A DNA stretch of 59,175 nucleotides, taken from IMG/VR virus record IMGVR_UViG_3300028392_000072, positions 1-59,175 of that record; one strand, written 5' to 3'. The stretch is from a virus. Taxonomy: Duplodnaviria > Caudoviricetes. Positions 35,898 through 58,873 of the stretch are shown piece after piece. A program made the translations under genes and the position numbers. The notes beneath the pieces were generated by a model. It was given only the letters and a program-made list of their open reading frames with translations, did no database searches and was not told the DNA's origin. Position 1 is the stretch's first letter. Every line of letters starts with the position of its first letter.

Positions 35898-35976
35898 ATG
35901 TGCGTGACTTTGAGGTAGTCACACTGTCAATGACAGACCCTCCTCTCGGAGTAAGTTAACCACTACGAAAACTTAG

Positions 35977-36052
35977 TAGTCAGTATTGGATTCGAACCAA
36001 TGTTTGATATCTGAATAGATATCCGTCCTGAATGCCGCTAGACGAACTGACC
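35977..36052 (-). tRNA. tRNA-Glu-like; 8-nt anticodon loop CUAUUCAG
   Basis: GGTCAGT/ACTGACT acceptor, GTCTAGCGG..AGGAC D-arm, GATAT/ATATC stem, canonical T-arm. Confidence 0.75.
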
Positions 36053-36060
36053 ATAAAAAA

Positions 36061-36908
36061 AAGGACTGAGATTACATCCTTATACGACAAGTCTTTGTTT
36101 GGATTATGTGTTCCCAAATCTATCCACCATCTTTTGGATGGTATCCTGTCAATACCGGTTAGTTAGACTAACCACTCCTTGAGTCACTGATCACTCTCCC
36201 TCTACTCTACTTATCCAACCCTCGCAGGCTAGTTCGGGATTCGACTCCCTATAAGCTTTTCGATGAAATCACACCAGTCTTTCGGACTTATGTGGCCAAG
36301 AACAACTCTTGACTAAGTAGGTACCTTTCATCAGTAACTAGATAACACTTTCGATTTGAGTTTAGTTTTGAATTAAATTTCAAATTTTAGTGCCGTAGAT
36401 TTATGTCGAAGTAGTGGTTATCTCTTAGTTTTCAAAGCTTTTGACCTCAAAAATTCTAGACTACTCCGTGTGATGCCTCCATCACAACTCTTTAAGATAT
36501 CTTCACTAGACCCTACCTTAGCAGGTCACCGACTTGGTAGTCAGTTTAGTGTTCATTAACAGCACCACCTGTACAATGAATTGTCTTTCGACTTTGAGAT
36601 ACCTCTCAAGTTGAAACTCGCAATGATGATAACTGGTTGGTCACCACTTCTCGCAAAATTCCTACGGATTATTCCTATTCTTCTTCCGAAGTCAACTAGA
36701 CAATCTACACTTACCTAGTCACTAAACCATTTCATCTACAGTGTTACCCTCGATTACTAAGGAATAGTGGTATTCCGTTTGCTTACCCGAGCTCAACCTT
36801 TCGGTCAAGCCGCAAACACATTTAGCATTTGTGATCACTTTATCCTCCTTTCAGAGATTATTTATGGACTATAAGCCGCCCCACTTACTCTAATGACCGA
36901 GGTCATTA
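36061..36908 (-). ncRNA. large structured ncRNA (~850 nt), GOLLD-like
   Basis: no ORF >=60 aa; visibly GC-richer than flanks; many GNRA/UUCG hairpins; ends AAGGATGTAATCTCAGTCCTT + U-tract; flanked by tRNAs; family assignment from memory. Confidence 0.6.
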
Positions 36909-44868: not shown

Positions 44869-45320
44869 ATTTTATAGTTTTTAAGAAAATCTTTTTCTAC
44901 TTCTTTTAAATTGTTCATTCCTACTTCTGATATTCTATCAAGGATAATATCAATATCTATATTTTCCATTGTCCAATAATTAATACCTTCCATAAAGATA
45001 TTAAATTTTATCTGACTTGTTGGTAAATATTTATCTTTTAATAAAATCTCTACATCAATTTTACCTTTTAATACACTTTTAGATATATCTTTTAATTCAA
45101 ATTTAATTAAATTATTTTTCAATATAGAAATATATTTTTCGATTTCAAAGTTTGATGTAATCAAAATACAAGTATATTTATCATCTTCATCGTCATAATC
45201 AAAAAATGATTCTACATCAATATTAGAAATAACTTCTTTTTCATAATCATCCAATCTATCATAATCATCATTTAAGAAGTCGGAATTTTTATCGAATTTT
45301 ATTTTGAATATAGAGGTCAT
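44865..45320 (-). CDS. hypothetical protein
   Basis: C-terminal IDIILDRISEVGMNNLKEVEKDFL. Confidence 0.65.
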   Translation of the reverse strand: MTSIFKIKFDKNSDFLNDDYDRLDDYEKEVISNIDVESFFDYDDEDDKYTCILITSNFEIEKYISILKNNLIKFELKDISKSVLKGKIDVEILLKDKYLPTSQIKFNIFMEGINYWTMENIDIDIILDRISEVGMNNLKEVEKDFLKNYKI

Positions 45321-45433
45321 TAAATTATATATTAATTACAAATATAAACAAAAATATTTACTAATAAAAGCAAATTCATGTATCATCATGATATACTTTT
45401 ATAAACATTATATATATTATTAATATAATTTTT

Positions 45434-45814
45434 ATGGAAAAGAAAATGCCTGATAGTTTTGTAGAAAACAGATTATCTAAAAGATATCCAACGGAAGTTG
45501 GTGGTCCAAAATTTGAGCCTGATAATATCAGTCTTTTCAAATTAGAAAAAACTAGTAAAGTAAAAAAATACTATTCTTCTAAGTTTGAAGAAATGACTAA
45601 AGAATATGAATCATTAATGAATGAGATTAGTATCAATGAAAGACTTTATAAATCTAGTCATAACTTTGAACCAGTAACTGGTGAAATTTATCACTTATAT
45701 AAAAAAGAATCCGGTGAAGAATTTCTTTCTTTAATATCTCCTGATCAATGGAAGAAATGTGAGTTTATCGGATCTTATAAATTTTTATCAGACGGAAGAT
45801 GGGAGGTAGCTTAA
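45434..45814 (+). CDS. DUF2452-like protein
   Basis: PVTGEIYHLY, FLSLISPDQW. Confidence 0.65.
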   Translation: MEKKMPDSFVENRLSKRYPTEVGGPKFEPDNISLFKLEKTSKVKKYYSSKFEEMTKEYESLMNEISINERLYKSSHNFEPVTGEIYHLYKKESGEEFLSLISPDQWKKCEFIGSYKFLSDGRWEVA

Positions 45815-46145
45815 CTTCTAATAAAATAAAAGTAAATAAATGGAGAGGAAAATCTTAATACAACCTCTAATATTCTAATAATATTTTTACCATTTTTTCT
45901 AGTAATTTTTTTTACTATATTTTCTTTTGGATCAAAAATTTCTATCATATTAAGTTTTTAATTTTATGTAAGATTACTTACTACTTAATATGATATCAGA
46001 AGTATTTTTGTTTTTAACCAGGTATTGTTATTAGCTTTATAAACTCATCAAAATCACATTCCATATAGGCTTTATCAATATCAAATTGATCATCATAATC
46101 AACCATTACAAATCTTACAACCTTTTTAATAATGACACCGAAGTA

Positions 46146-47783
46146 TTAGACTAAAGAAAAACCTTCTTTCAAACTTACCGTTTTATTGAAACTTTTACCA
46201 TCAGTATCTAAAATATAATACCCCTTTCTCATCATTTGAACTGGCTCCTTGACGTTTAAAACGTGTGGTTCAAAGATTGCCTTATCATTAATTATAAGTG
46301 AATCTGTGTTGATGTAATTGATAAAATCATCTTCATTTTTATCCGGTGATTCATCATTGAATAATCTATCATATTCATTTACATTAACTCTAACTCCATG
46401 TTCAGCAGATACCCAGTGAATAGTTCCTTTAATCTTTCTTTCAAAAGTCATACCAGATCTTGTTAAAGGGTCGTAAGTACATCTAATTTCAATAACTTCT
46501 CCACTATCATTCTTGATAACTTCATTCGCTTTAATAACATAAGCACCTTTCAATCTTACTTCACCACCCAACTTTAATCTGTGGAATTTGTTATTAGCTT
46601 CTTCTCTGAAATCTTCCGATTCAATAAATAACTCACCACTAAAAGGAATCATTCTAGTACCAGCACTTTCATCACCAGGATTGTTTTCAACTTCAACCAT
46701 TTCAGTTCCATCATCCCAATTAGTAATAACTAACTTAACGGGATTCATTACACCCATCAATCTATTAGCAACTACATTCAAATCAGTTCTCAAACATTCT
46801 TCTAAAAGCAAGTAAGAAACAACTGACTCTTTTCTAGTAACAGAAATTCTATCACAGAAATCTTTAATAGCATTTGGTGTAAAACCTCTTCTTCTTAAAC
46901 CAGAAATAGTTGGCATTCTTGGATCATTCCAACCATCTACAAATCCTTCTTCAACTAATCTTTTTAATTTTCTCTTTGACATAACTGTATAGTCAATGTT
47001 CAAACGAGCAAACTCAGTTTCTTCTGGAAGTGGATTTTCTAAATCACAATTTTCCAAGACCCACATATATAAAGGTCTATGAACTTCAAATTCTAAAGTA
47101 CATAAAGAATCAGTGATACCTTCTTTATAATCTGAAAGTGGATGAGCAAAGTCATACATTGGATAAATCTTCCAAGTATCACCAGTTCTGTGGTGTGACT
47201 TACTGATAATTCTATAAAGAACCGGATCTCTTAAAATCATATTAGGAGAAGTCATATCAATATTGGCTCTCAAGATTTTAGAACCTTCAGAGAATTCACC
47301 TAATATCATTCTATTAAATAGGTCTAAGTTTTCTTCTATACTTCTAGATTTATAAGGTGAGTCTTTACCAACTGAAGTTGGTGTTCCTTTTAAGTTAGCA
47401 ATTTCTTCAGATGTTGAATCATCAACATAAGCTAATCCTTTCTTAATTAAAGTAACAGCACATTCATAAAGAAAATCAAAATAATCAGAGGTGTATCTGA
47501 TTTCACTTGGAGTATAACCAAGCCATTTTATATCTTCAATCATTGAATCTACAAACTCTTTTCTTTCAGTTGTTGGATTCGTGTCGTCAAATCTTAACAC
47601 ACACGGAGCATTATACTTTTCTGCTAATCCAAAATTTAATATAATGGATTTAGCGTGACCTAAGTGAAGACCACCCACAACTCTACCATCGTTTAGTATA
47701 GCTCCATTTGGTTCTGGTGGAAAACGAAGTTTTAACTTATCAAGATTTCCTTTTTCTAATATTTTTTCTTCTATGAAATTCAT
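46146..47783 (-). CDS. glnS: glutaminyl-tRNA synthetase
   Basis: RFPPEPNG, HLGH, RFDDTNP, YPMYDFAH, SLCTLEF, MSKR, KGTIHWVS. Confidence 0.95.
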   Translation of the reverse strand: MNFIEEKILEKGNLDKLKLRFPPEPNGAILNDGRVVGGLHLGHAKSIILNFGLAEKYNAPCVLRFDDTNPTTERKEFVDSMIEDIKWLGYTPSEIRYTSDYFDFLYECAVTLIKKGLAYVDDSTSEEIANLKGTPTSVGKDSPYKSRSIEENLDLFNRMILGEFSEGSKILRANIDMTSPNMILRDPVLYRIISKSHHRTGDTWKIYPMYDFAHPLSDYKEGITDSLCTLEFEVHRPLYMWVLENCDLENPLPEETEFARLNIDYTVMSKRKLKRLVEEGFVDGWNDPRMPTISGLRRRGFTPNAIKDFCDRISVTRKESVVSYLLLEECLRTDLNVVANRLMGVMNPVKLVITNWDDGTEMVEVENNPGDESAGTRMIPFSGELFIESEDFREEANNKFHRLKLGGEVRLKGAYVIKANEVIKNDSGEVIEIRCTYDPLTRSGMTFERKIKGTIHWVSAEHGVRVNVNEYDRLFNDESPDKNEDDFINYINTDSLIINDKAIFEPHVLNVKEPVQMMRKGYYILDTDGKSFNKTVSLKEGFSLV

Positions 47784-47811
47784 AATGTTTATATTTTTAT
47801 ATGTTGTTTAG

Positions 47812-47883
47812 TTGGAAAAACAGGGATCGAACCTGTATCTTCTGATTCAAAGTCAGAAATAATAACCATTATACTATTTTCCA
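47812..47883 (-). tRNA. tRNA-Gln (TTG), very AU-rich
   Basis: TGGAAAA/TTTTCCA; TCTGA-CTTTGAA-TCAGA. Confidence 0.85.
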
Positions 47884-47910
47884 ATATTACTACTATCTAG
47901 AGTAGTTTTG

Positions 47911-47991
47911 CTATCCGGGTAGGACTCGAACCTACACGCCTTTCGGCATCCGCTTCAAAGGCGGATGTGGCTGCCATTTCACCACCGGACA
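47911..47991 (-). tRNA. tRNA with Gln anticodon (TTG) and Leu-like body with long variable arm
   Basis: TCCGC-CTTTGAA-GCGGA; V-arm GCC-GAAA-GGC; G73. Confidence 0.85.
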
Positions 47992-48048
47992 ATTTGTTAT
48001 ATTAAATTTCTAAATGTCAAACTCATTCTACCGGAATTTGTATGAAAT

Positions 48049-48083
48049 AAAAAAACCCTGTCCAAAAAGATTGAACAGGGTTT
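48049..48083 (-). terminator. attenuator terminator 1 (upstream of tRNA-Gln x2 + glnS)
   Basis: minus strand AAACCCTGTTCAA-loop-TTGGACAGGGTTTTTTT. Confidence 0.8.
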
Positions 48084-48111
48084 GTAAAGTTTACACAATA
48101 CTATTCCATTA

Positions 48112-48162
48112 TCAATCTGTTCGATTAATTTGTTGTTGCTGGAATTGTGTTGTTGTTCTCAT
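48112..48162 (-). CDS. Gln-rich leader peptide MRTTTQFQQQQINRTD
   Basis: 5 Gln codons; 3' end GAACAG/AGATTGA complementary to terminator 5' arm CTGTTC/TCAATCT; TATCTTTG promoter element at ~48206-48213. Confidence 0.8.
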   Translation of the reverse strand: MRTTTQFQQQQINRTD

Positions 48163-48196
48163 TTTAATTTCTTTTTTTACAATATTAGTTATATTT

Positions 48197-49024
48197 TTAT
48201 TCATACAAAGATATAAAATTTTTTCCATATTTACCGACCACATAGTCTAAATATATCTTTATGTCTTTCTTGTATATAACTTTTATTTCATATGGGAAAT
48301 ATGAAATTTTAGCATTTGTTAAATCCGATTCAAAGTTCTTAATTTCCACATACTCATCATTAACTATAAAATCTGGATAAAATAAATGTTTTTTATTTTT
48401 ATAAAAATATTCAAATCCTTTTTTATTTCTTTCAATTTTTATATTATGATCAATACAATATATTAAATATGCTAATTCATAACTACTATCCAACCAATAA
48501 CCTTTATACCACCCTGACTTACCTCTACTACTTCCTTTTTTAATACCACCTGATATCTCTAACCAACATTTTTTATGATACTTTTGTTCTCTGTATTTTT
48601 GATTAACTCCACATTCTCCACATTTTAAACAAGTAAATTGTATTATCTTCTTATCTCTTTTAGGCGGGATAAACATATTTCCATTTAAAATTAACGAATT
48701 TCTTATTTTACTTTTTGTTTCTTCAGATAGTGTTCTTTGTCTAGAACATTTATCAGAACAATATTTTCTTAAAATTTGTTTATTTTTATCTCTTTCAAAT
48801 TCAGATATCGTAGATTCAACCTCAAATTTAGTATTACATCTTAAACAATTTCTAATTTCTACAACTCTATCAACTTTATTACAACCTTTAAATAACTTAC
48901 TAAGATTTTCTTTTCTTTTCTCAAAATTTGGATTTTCATCACAACACGCAACATGTGAAGCAAATCCTTGTTGTTTTTCAACGAATATTAATTTTTTACA
49001 CCATTTACATTCTTTTATATACAT
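48197..49024 (-). CDS. homing-type endonuclease (Zn fingers + TnsA-like PD-(D/E)XK)
   Basis: CxxC pairs; DSSYELAY, FYPDF, VEIK. Confidence 0.7.
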   Translation of the reverse strand: MYIKECKWCKKLIFVEKQQGFASHVACCDENPNFEKRKENLSKLFKGCNKVDRVVEIRNCLRCNTKFEVESTISEFERDKNKQILRKYCSDKCSRQRTLSEETKSKIRNSLILNGNMFIPPKRDKKIIQFTCLKCGECGVNQKYREQKYHKKCWLEISGGIKKGSSRGKSGWYKGYWLDSSYELAYLIYCIDHNIKIERNKKGFEYFYKNKKHLFYPDFIVNDEYVEIKNFESDLTNAKISYFPYEIKVIYKKDIKIYLDYVVGKYGKNFISLYE

Positions 49025-49076
49025 AGATTATATATTAAAAATTAAACGGTCCCTATCAAAAACGAACCCAAACATG

Positions 49077-49152
49077 CGGATCTAATGGGATTCGAACCCA
49101 CCTGATCTTCCGAGTGACAGTCGGACGGACACACCAAGCATCCCCTAGATCC
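49077..49152 (-). tRNA. tRNA-Asp (GTC), atypical D-arm
   Basis: TCCGA-CTGTCAC-TCGGA; G73; G at position 8. Confidence 0.85.
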
Positions 49153-49161
49153 ATATTTTTG

Positions 49162-49235
49162 TCTAAGTGACAGGGTTCGAACCTGCGGCCTGAGAGTCCC
49201 AAACTCCCCGCTCTACCAAACTGAGCTACACCTAG
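49162..49235 (-). tRNA. tRNA-Pro (TGG)
   Basis: loop TTTGGGA; C1-G72, A73. Confidence 0.9.
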
Positions 49236-49297
49236 TTTTTGAGAATTCTTTTACTCTATTCCCAAAAGAGTACGTTTCTGTCCAATTATACTTCGTG

Positions 49298-49370
49298 TTG
49301 TCCCACAAGGGTTCGAACCTCGACTCTTCGGTACCAAAAACCGACGTGTTGCCAATTACACCATAAGACA
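49298..49370 (-). tRNA. tRNA-Gln (TTG)
   Basis: TCGGT-TTTTGGT-ACCGA; U1-A72. Confidence 0.9.
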
Positions 49371-49372
49371 AT

Positions 49373-49407
49373 AAAAAACCCTCATAAGAACTAACTTATG
49401 AGGGTTT
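49373..49407 (-). terminator. attenuator terminator 2 (upstream of tRNA Gln/Pro/Asp)
   Basis: minus strand AAACCCTCATAAG-loop-CTTATGAGGGTTTTTT. Confidence 0.85.
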
Positions 49408-49429
49408 ACAAATCGTTTAATGTTTTTAA

Positions 49430-49525
49430 TTAACTTATTGTAAAGACATAGTTAGTCACTTCCTTAGAATCCTGATCCTGAGGTTGCGGGTTAACTTGTG
49501 CGATATTTACGTTAATTGTTTTCAT
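49430..49525 (-). CDS. leader peptide MKTINVNIAQVNPQPQDQDSKEVTNYVFTIS
   Basis: Q/P/D tract matches downstream tRNAs; GACTAACTATG can pair with terminator CATAAGTTAGTT. Confidence 0.8.
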   Translation of the reverse strand: MKTINVNIAQVNPQPQDQDSKEVTNYVFTIS

Positions 49526-49572
49526 TTTATTATATAGTAAATTGTTTATGTCTCTTTTAATGTTTATTCTTA

Positions 49573-49611
49573 TTTTATACAAATATAGATAAAAGTTTTA
49601 TATCTGCCTAA
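49573..49611 (-). promoter_or_regulatory. Bacteroidota-type promoter for leader 2; near-identical to the leader-3 promoter
   Basis: TTAGGCAGATATAAAACTTTTATCTATATTTGTATAAAAT; copy at ~58834-58873. Confidence 0.75.
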
Positions 49612-49698
49612 TTTATTTTGTAAAAAAATTGAGACTTGTATCTGAATCGTTTCCCATCCCAATTCACAAAAATAAGGTAGGTTTTTTAATCCACCAAA

Positions 49699-50415
49699 TT
49701 ATTCTGTATCTTTTTTAAAATCATTATATCTTTTAATTTTATCACCACCTTTTAAATTATCAACCTTTGACTTCATTTCGTCATCCATAATCATAGGTAT
49801 TAACCTATTACCGATTGTCTTAGGGTCCTTTAGATATTTTTCAGTAGGTCTCTTATAATCATAACTATCTATATCACTATCTATAAATTTATAATCACCA
49901 GTAGTTGTTTCAAATCCAAATCTATTGAAGAAGGTAACTAATTCTTTTAGTGATTCATCAGAAAAACCAAAATATGTTTCAGGATCATATAAAGAATCTT
50001 TACCATTATAATGATGCACATTTACTTTATTTGGATAATCAATTGTAAACTCATACATCATTGAGTCACCATATGTTAAGTCAATGTTTAATCTTAGTGA
50101 ATTTGAAGGATTAGATTCTGTTCCATCATTATCTTTAACCATAGTAATATCAAATTGTAAGTTGTCTGGTTCACCATCTGCTGTTGGATCATCATCTTTT
50201 TTATCAAGAGTACTCTGAGAGTACATAACCGAAACACAATTCATTAAATTATAAATACCAGGGTATCCATCATCTCCAGGTTCCAAACTTTTCACATCTA
50301 ATGTAAACTCACCATTTTGATTAATAATAGTTAGTTTTTTAGGCAAAAGTTTTACCCATTCAGAAGAGTCAAAAATAGATATTTTATTCTCATTGAACTT
50401 TTTAATATATTTCAT
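49699..50415 (-). CDS. N-tagged hypothetical protein, paralog of 57076..57726
   Basis: MKYIKKFNE; PDNLQFDI, DLTYGDSM, EFTI..PNKV. Confidence 0.75.
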   Translation of the reverse strand: MKYIKKFNENKISIFDSSEWVKLLPKKLTIINQNGEFTLDVKSLEPGDDGYPGIYNLMNCVSVMYSQSTLDKKDDDPTADGEPDNLQFDITMVKDNDGTESNPSNSLRLNIDLTYGDSMMYEFTIDYPNKVNVHHYNGKDSLYDPETYFGFSDESLKELVTFFNRFGFETTTGDYKFIDSDIDSYDYKRPTEKYLKDPKTIGNRLIPMIMDDEMKSKVDNLKGGDKIKRYNDFKKDTE

Positions 50416-58833: not shown

Positions 58834-58873
58834 ATTTTATACAAAAATAGATAAAAGTTTTATATCTGCCTAA
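58834..58873 (-). promoter_or_regulatory. Bacteroidota-type promoter for leader 3 (plus TAATATATA at ~58791-58799)
   Basis: TTAGGCAGATATAAAACTTTTATCTATTTTTGTATAAAAT. Confidence 0.75.

Follow-up and report, generated by a model that had tools for sequence, protein, structure and literature searches.

A putative leader-peptide attenuator ahead of phage tRNA-Gln genes and glnS, with sister leaders before other tRNA arrays

The DNA analysed here is a 59,175-nt stretch of a virus (Duplodnaviria; Caudoviricetes; IMG/VR record IMGVR_UViG_3300028392_000072, positions 1 to 59,175), called the window below. On its minus strand lies a cassette made up of a short glutamine-rich open reading frame (ORF), an intrinsic terminator, two tRNA-Gln genes and glnS, which encodes glutamine--tRNA ligase (GlnRS). 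Comparison of these sequences with those of relatives allows the ORF and the terminator to be proposed, with good confidence, as a ribosome-mediated (leader-peptide) transcription attenuator of the trp/his/pheST type that would gate the phage tRNA-Gln genes and glnS. An attenuator of this kind calls for a translatable short ORF with start and stop, a cluster of cognate codons, a terminator between the leader and the regulated genes, a strand able to pair with the terminator 5' arm, and a position of that strand within reach of the ribosome. The elements of the cassette are listed here from promoter to synthetase gene, in coordinates of the whole window.

48206..48238, minus strand: promoter-like element GTCGG ... 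TATCTTTG, about 45 nt 5' of the leader ATG, read from the sequence
48162-48112, minus strand: leader ORF MRTTTQFQQQQINRTD (leader 1), 16 codons, ATG to TGA, from sequence reading and the ORF list
48123..48129, minus strand: segment 1 (AUUAAUC), right after the Gln run; predicted by RNAfold to pair with GAUUGAU as hairpin P2, the putative anti-antiterminator
48106..48118, minus strand: segment 2 (AGAUUGAUAAUGG), spanning the stop codon; the candidate antiterminator strand, pairing with the terminator 5' arm in RNAduplex
48094..48108, minus strand: 3' strand of the outer helix P1 (GGAAUAGUAUUGUGU), predicted by RNAfold to pair with leader codons 3-7
48083-48049, minus strand: intrinsic terminator, stem AAACCCUGUUCAA / UUGGACAGGGUUU, then U7 (segments 3 and 4), from the terminator scan and RNAfold
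48048-47992, minus strand: spacer of 57 nt from the T-run to the first tRNA, with a partial -7-like word TGAGTTTG only
47991-47910, minus strand: tRNA-Gln(UUG) with a long variable arm, 82 nt, U1:A72, G73, called by ARAGORN and by Infernal (50.1 bits)
47883-47811, minus strand: tRNA-Gln(UUG), canonical, called by ARAGORN and by Infernal (68.4 bits)
47783-46146, minus strand: glnS, glutamine--tRNA ligase, 545 aa, from Pfam and TIGR00440

The leader is read as ATG AGA ACA ACA ACA CAA TTC CAG CAA CAA CAA ATT AAT CGA ACA GAT TGA, so that a translatable short ORF with its own start and stop (TGA at 48114-48112) stands upstream of the tRNA-Gln genes and glnS. Five of its 16 codons specify Gln, against a background Gln usage of 2.4%, and four of them are consecutive (CAG CAA CAA CAA at 48141-48130; the fifth is at 48147-48145), forming the cluster of cognate codons. 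Between this leader and the genes it would regulate stands the terminator, a hairpin at 48083-48053 with 13 pairs (5 of them G-C) and a loop of 5, followed by a T7 that runs to 48049; five terminator-like sites were observed in 5 kb vs 0.9 expected from shuffles. The terminator scan returned no terminator-like site between the tRNAs and glnS, whose ATG lies 27 nt past the last tRNA. The product of glnS scores 630.3 bits against TIGR00440 (cut-off 425.8) and 693.7 against NF011291 (cut-off 681), and contains the Pfam domain tRNA-synt_1c (class I E/Q synthetase) and both C-terminal domains. The order poly-Gln leader, terminator, two tRNA-Gln(UUG), glnS, which had been proposed in a sequence-only reading of this DNA together with the lack of a terminator ahead of glnS, is thus borne out on both counts by ORF, terminator, ARAGORN/Infernal and HMM evidence.

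The pairing that would undo the terminator joins AGAUUGA, which lies across the leader stop codon, to UCAAUCU of the terminator 5' arm and loop, and GG:CC extends the duplex. The duplex has an energy of -9.6 kcal/mol; 300 dinucleotide shuffles give -5.9 (z -1.9, p 0.043). The sequence-only reading had placed the end of the leader against both CTGTTC and TCAATCT; the second register (AGAUUGA:UCAAUCU with GG:CC) is real, and the first was not returned by the duplex search. A GAACAG:CUGUUC register is present in the window and was set aside, as the search returns AGAUUGA:UCAAUCU + GG:CC in the window and in relatives. This search is alignment-free: for each leader it takes the best duplex that the whole sequence past the Gln run can form with the 5' arm and loop of its own terminator. 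It was relied on because a MAFFT alignment of 25 leaders puts the terminator arms of several rows out of register by 1-3 columns and was therefore set aside. In all 25 distinct leaders a terminator can be parsed and its 5' arm is bound more stably by the leader's own sequence than by 300 dinucleotide shuffles (mean z -3.6; each p <= 0.063). Moreover, cognate combinations reach -12.7 kcal/mol vs -10.0 for non-cognate ones, and 0 of 10000 permutations of the pairing are as good. Where terminators differ, segment 2 changes with them (L009, L010, L014, L034 and L035), giving matched pairs of segment 2 and terminator such as GUUGAAUG/CAUUCGAC in L010, ACUCAAGCUU/AAGCCUGGGU in L014 and GUUCCGG/CCUGGAAC in L009; in L002 and L012 the pairing is kept via G-U. 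Taken together, the AGAUUGA:UCAAUCU pairing is marginal on the window alone and strongly supported, as a prediction from sequence, across the family.

Before the terminator is made, the RNA is predicted to take up a recurrent fold in the window and in most relatives (RNAfold), consisting of the outer helix P1 and the hairpin P2 with the Gln run unpaired between them. In P1, leader codons 3-7 pair with GGUAU.GUAUUGU, a conserved stretch past the stop that includes the conserved motif GUAUUGU; the helix also shows a two-sided change, AUUCC/GGAAU in the window vs AUACC/GGUAU in L004-L006. In P2, AUUAAUC past the Gln run pairs with GAUUGAU, which contains the stop; the 3' strand of this hairpin and the following GG are also complementary to the terminator 5' arm. 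Over 25 leaders the pre-terminator RNA folds better than dinucleotide shuffles (mean z -2.3).

The distances between these elements are also restricted. Segment 2 starts 14 nt past the first base of the last Gln codon in the window and 12-17 nt past it in 24 of the 25 leaders (median 14, sd 1.8), which is about as far downstream of its decoding site as a ribosome extends. From the same base to the stop codon there are 15-36 nt (sd 6.3; 25 leaders). The tighter spacing from the Gln run argues that it is this run to which the antiterminator strand is tied. Segment 2 is found within -22 to +13 nt of the stop, which a ribosome of textbook footprint would reach; lying on or just before the stop, it would be masked by a terminating ribosome. 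This is the classical trp arrangement, in which 1:2 and 3:4 form when the ribosome does not stall and 2:3 when it does.

These elements can be assembled into a sequence of events. Transcription would start at the Bacteroidota-like promoter at ~48238-48206, or would read through from the preceding tRNA unit, and the 16-codon leader would be translated while RNA polymerase advances. With Gln-tRNA(Gln) plentiful, the ribosome would reach the UGA and cover segment 2, the terminator hairpin would form and the transcript would end at the U-tract; without translation, segment 2 would be locked in P1 and P2, and the terminator would form as well. Slow decoding of CAA/CAG would stall the ribosome on the four-codon Gln run, covering segment 1 (AUUAAUC) and the 5' strand of P1. 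Segment 2, thereby freed, would pair with the terminator 5' arm (CC...UCAAUCU) and allow read-through into the long-arm tRNA-Gln, the second tRNA-Gln and a co-transcribed glnS. As the products of the cassette would raise the very quantity that is sensed, the loop would be one of direct negative feedback.

The module was traced through its synthetase. glnS loci were gathered via the protein alone (14 viral and 80 metagenomic) and all were scored by one script, with 15 left unassessed (12 with <400 nt upstream, 3 duplicates). A poly-Gln ATG-ORF with a terminator is found at 24 of 33 phage-type loci, these being the assessable loci, duplicates removed, with a GlnRS at least 57% identical to that of the window; a tRNA-Gln lies upstream at 26/33, and both features occur at 23/33. 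At the assessable loci with a GlnRS 52-55% identical, which are probably bacterial, neither leader/terminator (0/48) nor upstream tRNA-Gln (0/48) was found. The Gln runs of relatives count 3-7 consecutive codons, with CAA and CAG mixed. By DNA, the region matches the uncultured huge phages LR745206.1 (634 kb) and LR756502.1 (642 kb) with 73-75% identity, and both share the layout of poly-Gln ORF (MTTTQQIQQQQINQTD or MTTSFQQQQQQQINRTD), terminator, tRNA-Gln array with a long-arm member, and glnS. Further relatives are IMG/VR and metagenome contigs of up to 519 kb, and the DNA runs containing the window stretch are mostly labelled as freshwater or lake water metagenomes. A pattern scan for leader/terminator DNA returned 6 stretches, four of them on contigs already in the set and two new; L021 carries the full module. 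The other, L022 (a 15-kb IMGVR contig, 2163-2266), matches the pattern without a four-Gln ATG-ORF and without a tRNA, and may be a chance match.

In most relatives the gap between the T-run and the tRNA is 2-3 nt vs 57 nt in the window, and the first tRNA begins 2 nt past the T-run in 15 of the 22 distinct leaders listed. This bears on a first alternative, in which the hairpin would be an unconditional terminator or 3'-end stabiliser of the upstream unit (the endonuclease-like ORF described below in the window, a tRNA array in relatives), while the tRNA-Gln genes and glnS would have their own promoter and the small ORF would go untranslated. Terminators at gene ends are common, and the 57-nt spacer of the window, with its partial -7-like word TGAGTTTG, would offer a place for such a promoter. 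However, a 2-nt gap leaves no room for one, so in those 15 leaders tRNA transcription must pass the terminator. Moreover, the Gln-run ORF, the complementarity between segment 2 and terminator, and the 12-17 nt spacing are conserved and co-vary, and leader codons match the downstream tRNAs across units, so that an unconditional terminator seems highly improbable.

The same short gap bears on a second alternative, in which translation of the leader would act post-transcriptionally, through RNase P/RNase E processing or precursor stability and not through termination. In most relatives the first tRNA is directly preceded by the terminator hairpin and U-tract, which thus make up its 5' leader and whose structure must matter for 5' processing. 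However, intrinsic terminators are typified by just such a G+C-rich stem with 6-7 U behind it, the mutually exclusive pairing of its 5' arm is what an antiterminator requires, and leader plus terminator also stand before protein genes without a tRNA: in L010 the poly-Gln leader and terminator come straight before an ORF and glnS, and L110, treated below, has a similar layout. A purely post-transcriptional role is thus hardly probable at all.

Attenuation as proposed for leader 1 does not appear to be confined to it, as a window-wide scan returned three leader-terminator units, the other two being:

49525-49430, minus strand: leader 2 MKTINVNIAQVNPQPQDQDSKEVTNYVFTIS, with its terminator at 49407-49376 and a promoter motif at 49611
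58782-58672, minus strand: leader 3 MTTINLNMNMNTLTVVNNTLCIRPCEGFDLFKGFVN, with its terminator at 58639-58619 and a promoter motif at 58873

Leader 2 begins MKTINVNIAQVNPQPQDQD, and its terminator abuts a tRNA-Gln (49370-49297), which is followed by tRNA-Pro (49235-49161) and tRNA-Asp (49152-49076). Leader 3 begins MTTINLNMNMNTLTVVNNTLCIR and precedes an array of Asn, Ile, Arg, Leu, Val, Thr, Leu and Met tRNAs; 21 of its 22 first codons after the start are cognate to downstream tRNAs, the exception being Cys. Over 40 distinct units from all loci, the mean share of leader residues cognate to downstream tRNAs is 0.29, vs 0.19 when leaders and arrays are permuted (0/20000 reach the observed value) and 0.088 predicted from amino-acid usage. 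Restricted to the 19 units whose array is not purely Gln, the share is 0.25 vs 0.19 permuted (0/20000). The sister leaders also show complementarity between segment 2 and terminator (20 units, one of which, L029, is poly-Gln), with a mean z of -2.2 and cognate duplexes of -11.3 vs -9.0 kcal/mol (0/10000).

The complete genome of LR745206.1, with 61 tRNA hits, offers the broadest view, as seven units precede 55 of the tRNAs:

leader THKNFSKSHKWFS, before His, Phe, His, Phe, Trp and Lys x4
leader TSKSSSRSSS..R, before Arg and Ser
leader SYESYYEEG, before Glu x4 and Tyr x2
leader ISIAVIGNGAGAI, before Ile, Gly, Met, Gly, Ala, Gly and Ala
an Asn/Leu/Met/Thr/Val/Ile/Arg leader, before a 20-tRNA array
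a Pro/Gln/Asp leader
a poly-Gln leader

The cognate share in this genome is 0.42 (mean 0.17), a value that none of the 5040 permutations attains apart from the true pairing. Elsewhere in the same phage (L110 40-200, ~390.3-392.9 kb), a promoter motif, a leader MKTMTINNRNRLTDII (NNRNR) and a terminator precede asnS, identified by NF003037 (414.1 bits, cut-off 414) and TIGR00457 (394.5, cut-off 342.6). The ORF that follows (392 aa) has a weak, below cut-off match to ArgRS of 39 bits, the genes together occupying L110 223-2599. This locus may thus be a leader-gated synthetase operon without tRNAs. When the same script was run as a control on Prevotella phage Lak-B1 (28 ARAGORN and 33 Infernal tRNA hits), it returned no leader-terminator unit next to the tRNAs, so the system is not general to megaphages.

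The sister leaders bear in turn on a third alternative, in which Gln-tRNA would be sensed without a ribosome, either by the CAA run binding the UUG anticodon of tRNA-Gln (T-box-like) or by the leader binding GlnRS (thrS-operator-like). Leaders that bind a tRNA or an enzyme control aminoacyl-tRNA synthetase (aaRS) genes in other bacteria, and the predicted folds leave the Gln run single-stranded between P1 and P2. However, an ATG and an in-frame stop flank the Gln run in every leader, segment 2 lies one ribosome reach from the last Gln codon, and multi-codon leaders precede arrays of those tRNA kinds, which is hard to reconcile with a single specifier. For the T-box form, Rfam returned no T-box match in 45000-50000 at E values up to 1. 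Sensing without a ribosome is thus considered very unlikely.

Several points weigh against the proposed leader-peptide attenuation. The proposal supposes that the polymerase, whether of host or phage, is coupled to ribosomes and obeys the terminator. Six RNA libraries contain 6-10% of sampled window words, but contigs from four of them are short, come from relatives 90-95% alike and may contain DNA, so they give no verdict on transcription. One of 479 nt (X19, record 6) spans the leader with one extra CAA and has a joint that links 48068, just beyond the region of the leader-1 terminator, to 49382, right before the tRNA-Gln at 49370; this suggests the layout of L001, in a contig that may itself be DNA. 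At nine of the 33 phage-type glnS loci there is no leader, and the module is therefore not obligatory. These are L011, with an endonuclease-like ORF upstream; L023 and L042, whose contigs start inside a tRNA array; L013, L037 and L041, without a tRNA; and L038-L040, with glnS behind a different tRNA array. Three of the nine have a tRNA-Gln, among them the two whose contigs start inside the array. An ATG-ORF spans the run in the Gln frame in 24/24 leaders, and in the other two frames in 0 and 2 of 24 (L032, without a run of three Gln codons, was left out), a result that is partly circular because the leaders were chosen by Gln-rich ORFs. The antiterminator duplex of the window is among the weakest of the family, and P1 and P2 are predicted helices. 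Shuffles control for composition and not for shared ancestry, although co-variation is addressed by the comparison of cognate with non-cognate arms and by the distinct terminator classes. Finally, the 57-nt spacer with its partial -7-like word means that the tRNAs and glnS of the window could be partly transcribed independently. With regard to the self-contained, feedback-regulated Gln-tRNA cassette of the sequence-only reading, the ORF, terminator and pairing conserved and co-varying over 25 versions, the stall geometry and the adjacency of tRNAs and glnS support a gated unit. This unit does not stand alone, being one of a wider leader-gated set, and the spacer could allow it some independent transcription.

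Upstream, the promoter-like pair at 48238-48206 sits within the 3' end of an ORF (49024-48197). A composite motif, TTWGG-N18-26-TAnnTTTG, was found by regular expression in 8 copies on the minus strand of the window, mostly before RNA genes and leaders (58873, 49698, 49611, 40371, 37353, 37089, 37001 and 23390); they precede leaders 2 and 3, a tRNA-Met and a GOLLD RNA. The 48238-48206 element resembles this motif but is not matched by the expression because its first box is GTCGG. TAnnTTTG is the -7 consensus of Bacteroidota, and its recurrence in the window suggests a Bacteroidota host. The GOLLD RNA lies at 36063-36468 (minus strand), probably extending to ~36900 (Rfam RF02032, 265 bits vs a gathering threshold of 150), with the strong promoter motif present twice upstream (37089 and 37001). 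Just downstream of it, at 35976-36052, there is an odd tRNA-like gene with a 4-nt anticodon call.

The neighbourhood of the cassette differs from that in relatives. The tRNA-Gln that usually abuts the poly-Gln terminator is now behind leader 2 in the window, and an endonuclease-like ORF parts the leader-1 and leader-2 units. Relatives with 96-97% GlnRS identity (L003 and L023) have upstream sequences too short to compare. The ORF between the two tRNA units (48197-49024, minus strand, 275 aa) is absent from this place in L001 and L002; it has no Pfam match and a weak PHROG endonuclease match (E 5.5e-4), and part of it matches Lak phages with 71% DNA identity. In L023 a different ORF with Cys-rich, HNH-like motifs (by eye) lies between tRNA-Gln and glnS (150-820). 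Mobile endonucleases thus seem to shuffle the tRNA-Gln/glnS region.

Some of the tRNA genes themselves are unusual. The first tRNA-Gln of the cassette (47991-47910) has a 10-nt insertion in its variable region in the Infernal alignment, which is atypical for Gln, and a UUG anticodon. Long-arm tRNA-Gln(UUG) genes of 82-90 nt occur in 11 distinct versions in relatives, with compensating stem changes (for example L002 3171-3255, L004 3823-3905, L012 3744-3830 and L035 1602-1691), and U1:A72 is kept in 10/11 of these and in 55/64 short versions. Leader codons would offer an independent clue to the identity of such non-canonical phage tRNAs, and the long-arm UUG tRNA lies in the Gln-gated array. 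Over-long Pro, Asp, Asn and Ile tRNAs were also called by ARAGORN in relatives. In the window, two tRNAs missed by default ARAGORN and found by Infernal, UCU (Arg, 36.7 bits) and GAU (Ile, 35.8 bits), lie at 58349-58427 and 58434-58512 (minus strand); 4-5 nt replace their D-arm and their variable region is 19-20 nt. A weak tRNA-like gene at ~58059-57976 was called Val(cac) by relaxed ARAGORN. In Lak-B1, ARAGORN called a suppressor-type tRNA with the anticodon UUA ('Stop tta'; L115 677-749, ~344.98 kb).

Textbook examples of leader-peptide attenuation come from the genes of amino-acid biosynthesis and from one synthetase operon. In that operon, pheST of Escherichia coli, the pheM leader peptide with its cognate codons and a terminator place an aaRS operon under the control of charged tRNA. 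The cassette resembles pheST in having a short cognate-codon leader ORF and an intrinsic terminator ahead of a synthetase gene; it differs in being for Gln, in having tRNA genes first and the synthetase behind them, in being phage-encoded and in showing no sequence or Rfam similarity. With the trp, his, leu and thr leaders it would share the four-segment logic (1:2 and 3:4 vs 2:3) and the codon placement, although those control amino-acid biosynthesis. At E values up to 1, no Rfam amino-acid operon leader (His_leader, Phe_leader, Trp_leader, Leu_leader or Thr_leader) matches leader 1, and sister leaders give sub-threshold matches only (His_leader RF00514 with 31 bits vs 49 for leader 2; Phe_leader RF01859 with 26.4 vs 55). 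In multivalent attenuators such as those of ilvGMEDA and thr, a single leader responds to the combined supply of several amino acids, whose codons it carries. Leaders 2 and 3, like the LR745206.1 leaders, also carry codons for more than one amino acid, but the set mirrors downstream tRNA genes and not the end products of a pathway. The T-box riboswitches of Firmicutes bind tRNA directly, with no translation, and switch between terminator and antiterminator of aaRS genes according to charging; they are a functional analogue, whereas the ORF features described here point to a ribosome. The thrU-tyrU-glyT-thrT-tufB operon of E. coli has tRNA genes and a translation protein on one transcript, and the cassette would resemble it in its mixed tRNA-protein transcript; to our knowledge, no leader-peptide attenuator is known for that operon.

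In the literature, a search of full texts, with most subscription journals and supplements outside it, returned no paper in which leader-peptide attenuators are described for huge phages or ahead of tRNA genes. The terms attenuation, leader, terminator, glutaminyl and Gln do not occur in one article (PMC7162821), nor do the tRNA-gene terms tried in another (PMC2965389). A predicted RNA motif before Shewanella glnS has been named 'tRNA synthetase leader', and the passages available from that article have no leader peptide (PMC2659441). Rfam has no family for the element. What would be new here is an established attenuation mechanism acting on tRNA genes, in a virus, the mechanism itself being known.

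Altogether, it appears likely that a freshwater megaphage clade possesses a genome-wide, codon-resolved, supply-on-demand regulon for translation parts. Nearly all tRNA arrays and at least two synthetase operons (glnS; asnS with the ArgRS-like gene) would stand behind leader-peptide attenuators, and each leader would carry the codons that match the tRNAs or the synthetases encoded downstream. If so, the phage would gauge the decoding speed of its host codon by codon and top up only the limiting parts, which would explain need-based tuning in phages with dozens of tRNA genes and synthetases of their own. This would be, within the literature searched, the first ribosome-mediated attenuation of tRNA genes and the first virus-encoded attenuator, and the leader codons would serve as a built-in identity label for the odd tRNAs of the clade (long variable arm, no D-arm). 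These leaders would be compact natural sensors of individual charged-tRNA supply, with a possible use as reporters, and would make up a new and easily searchable class of cis-regulatory RNA, absent from Rfam.

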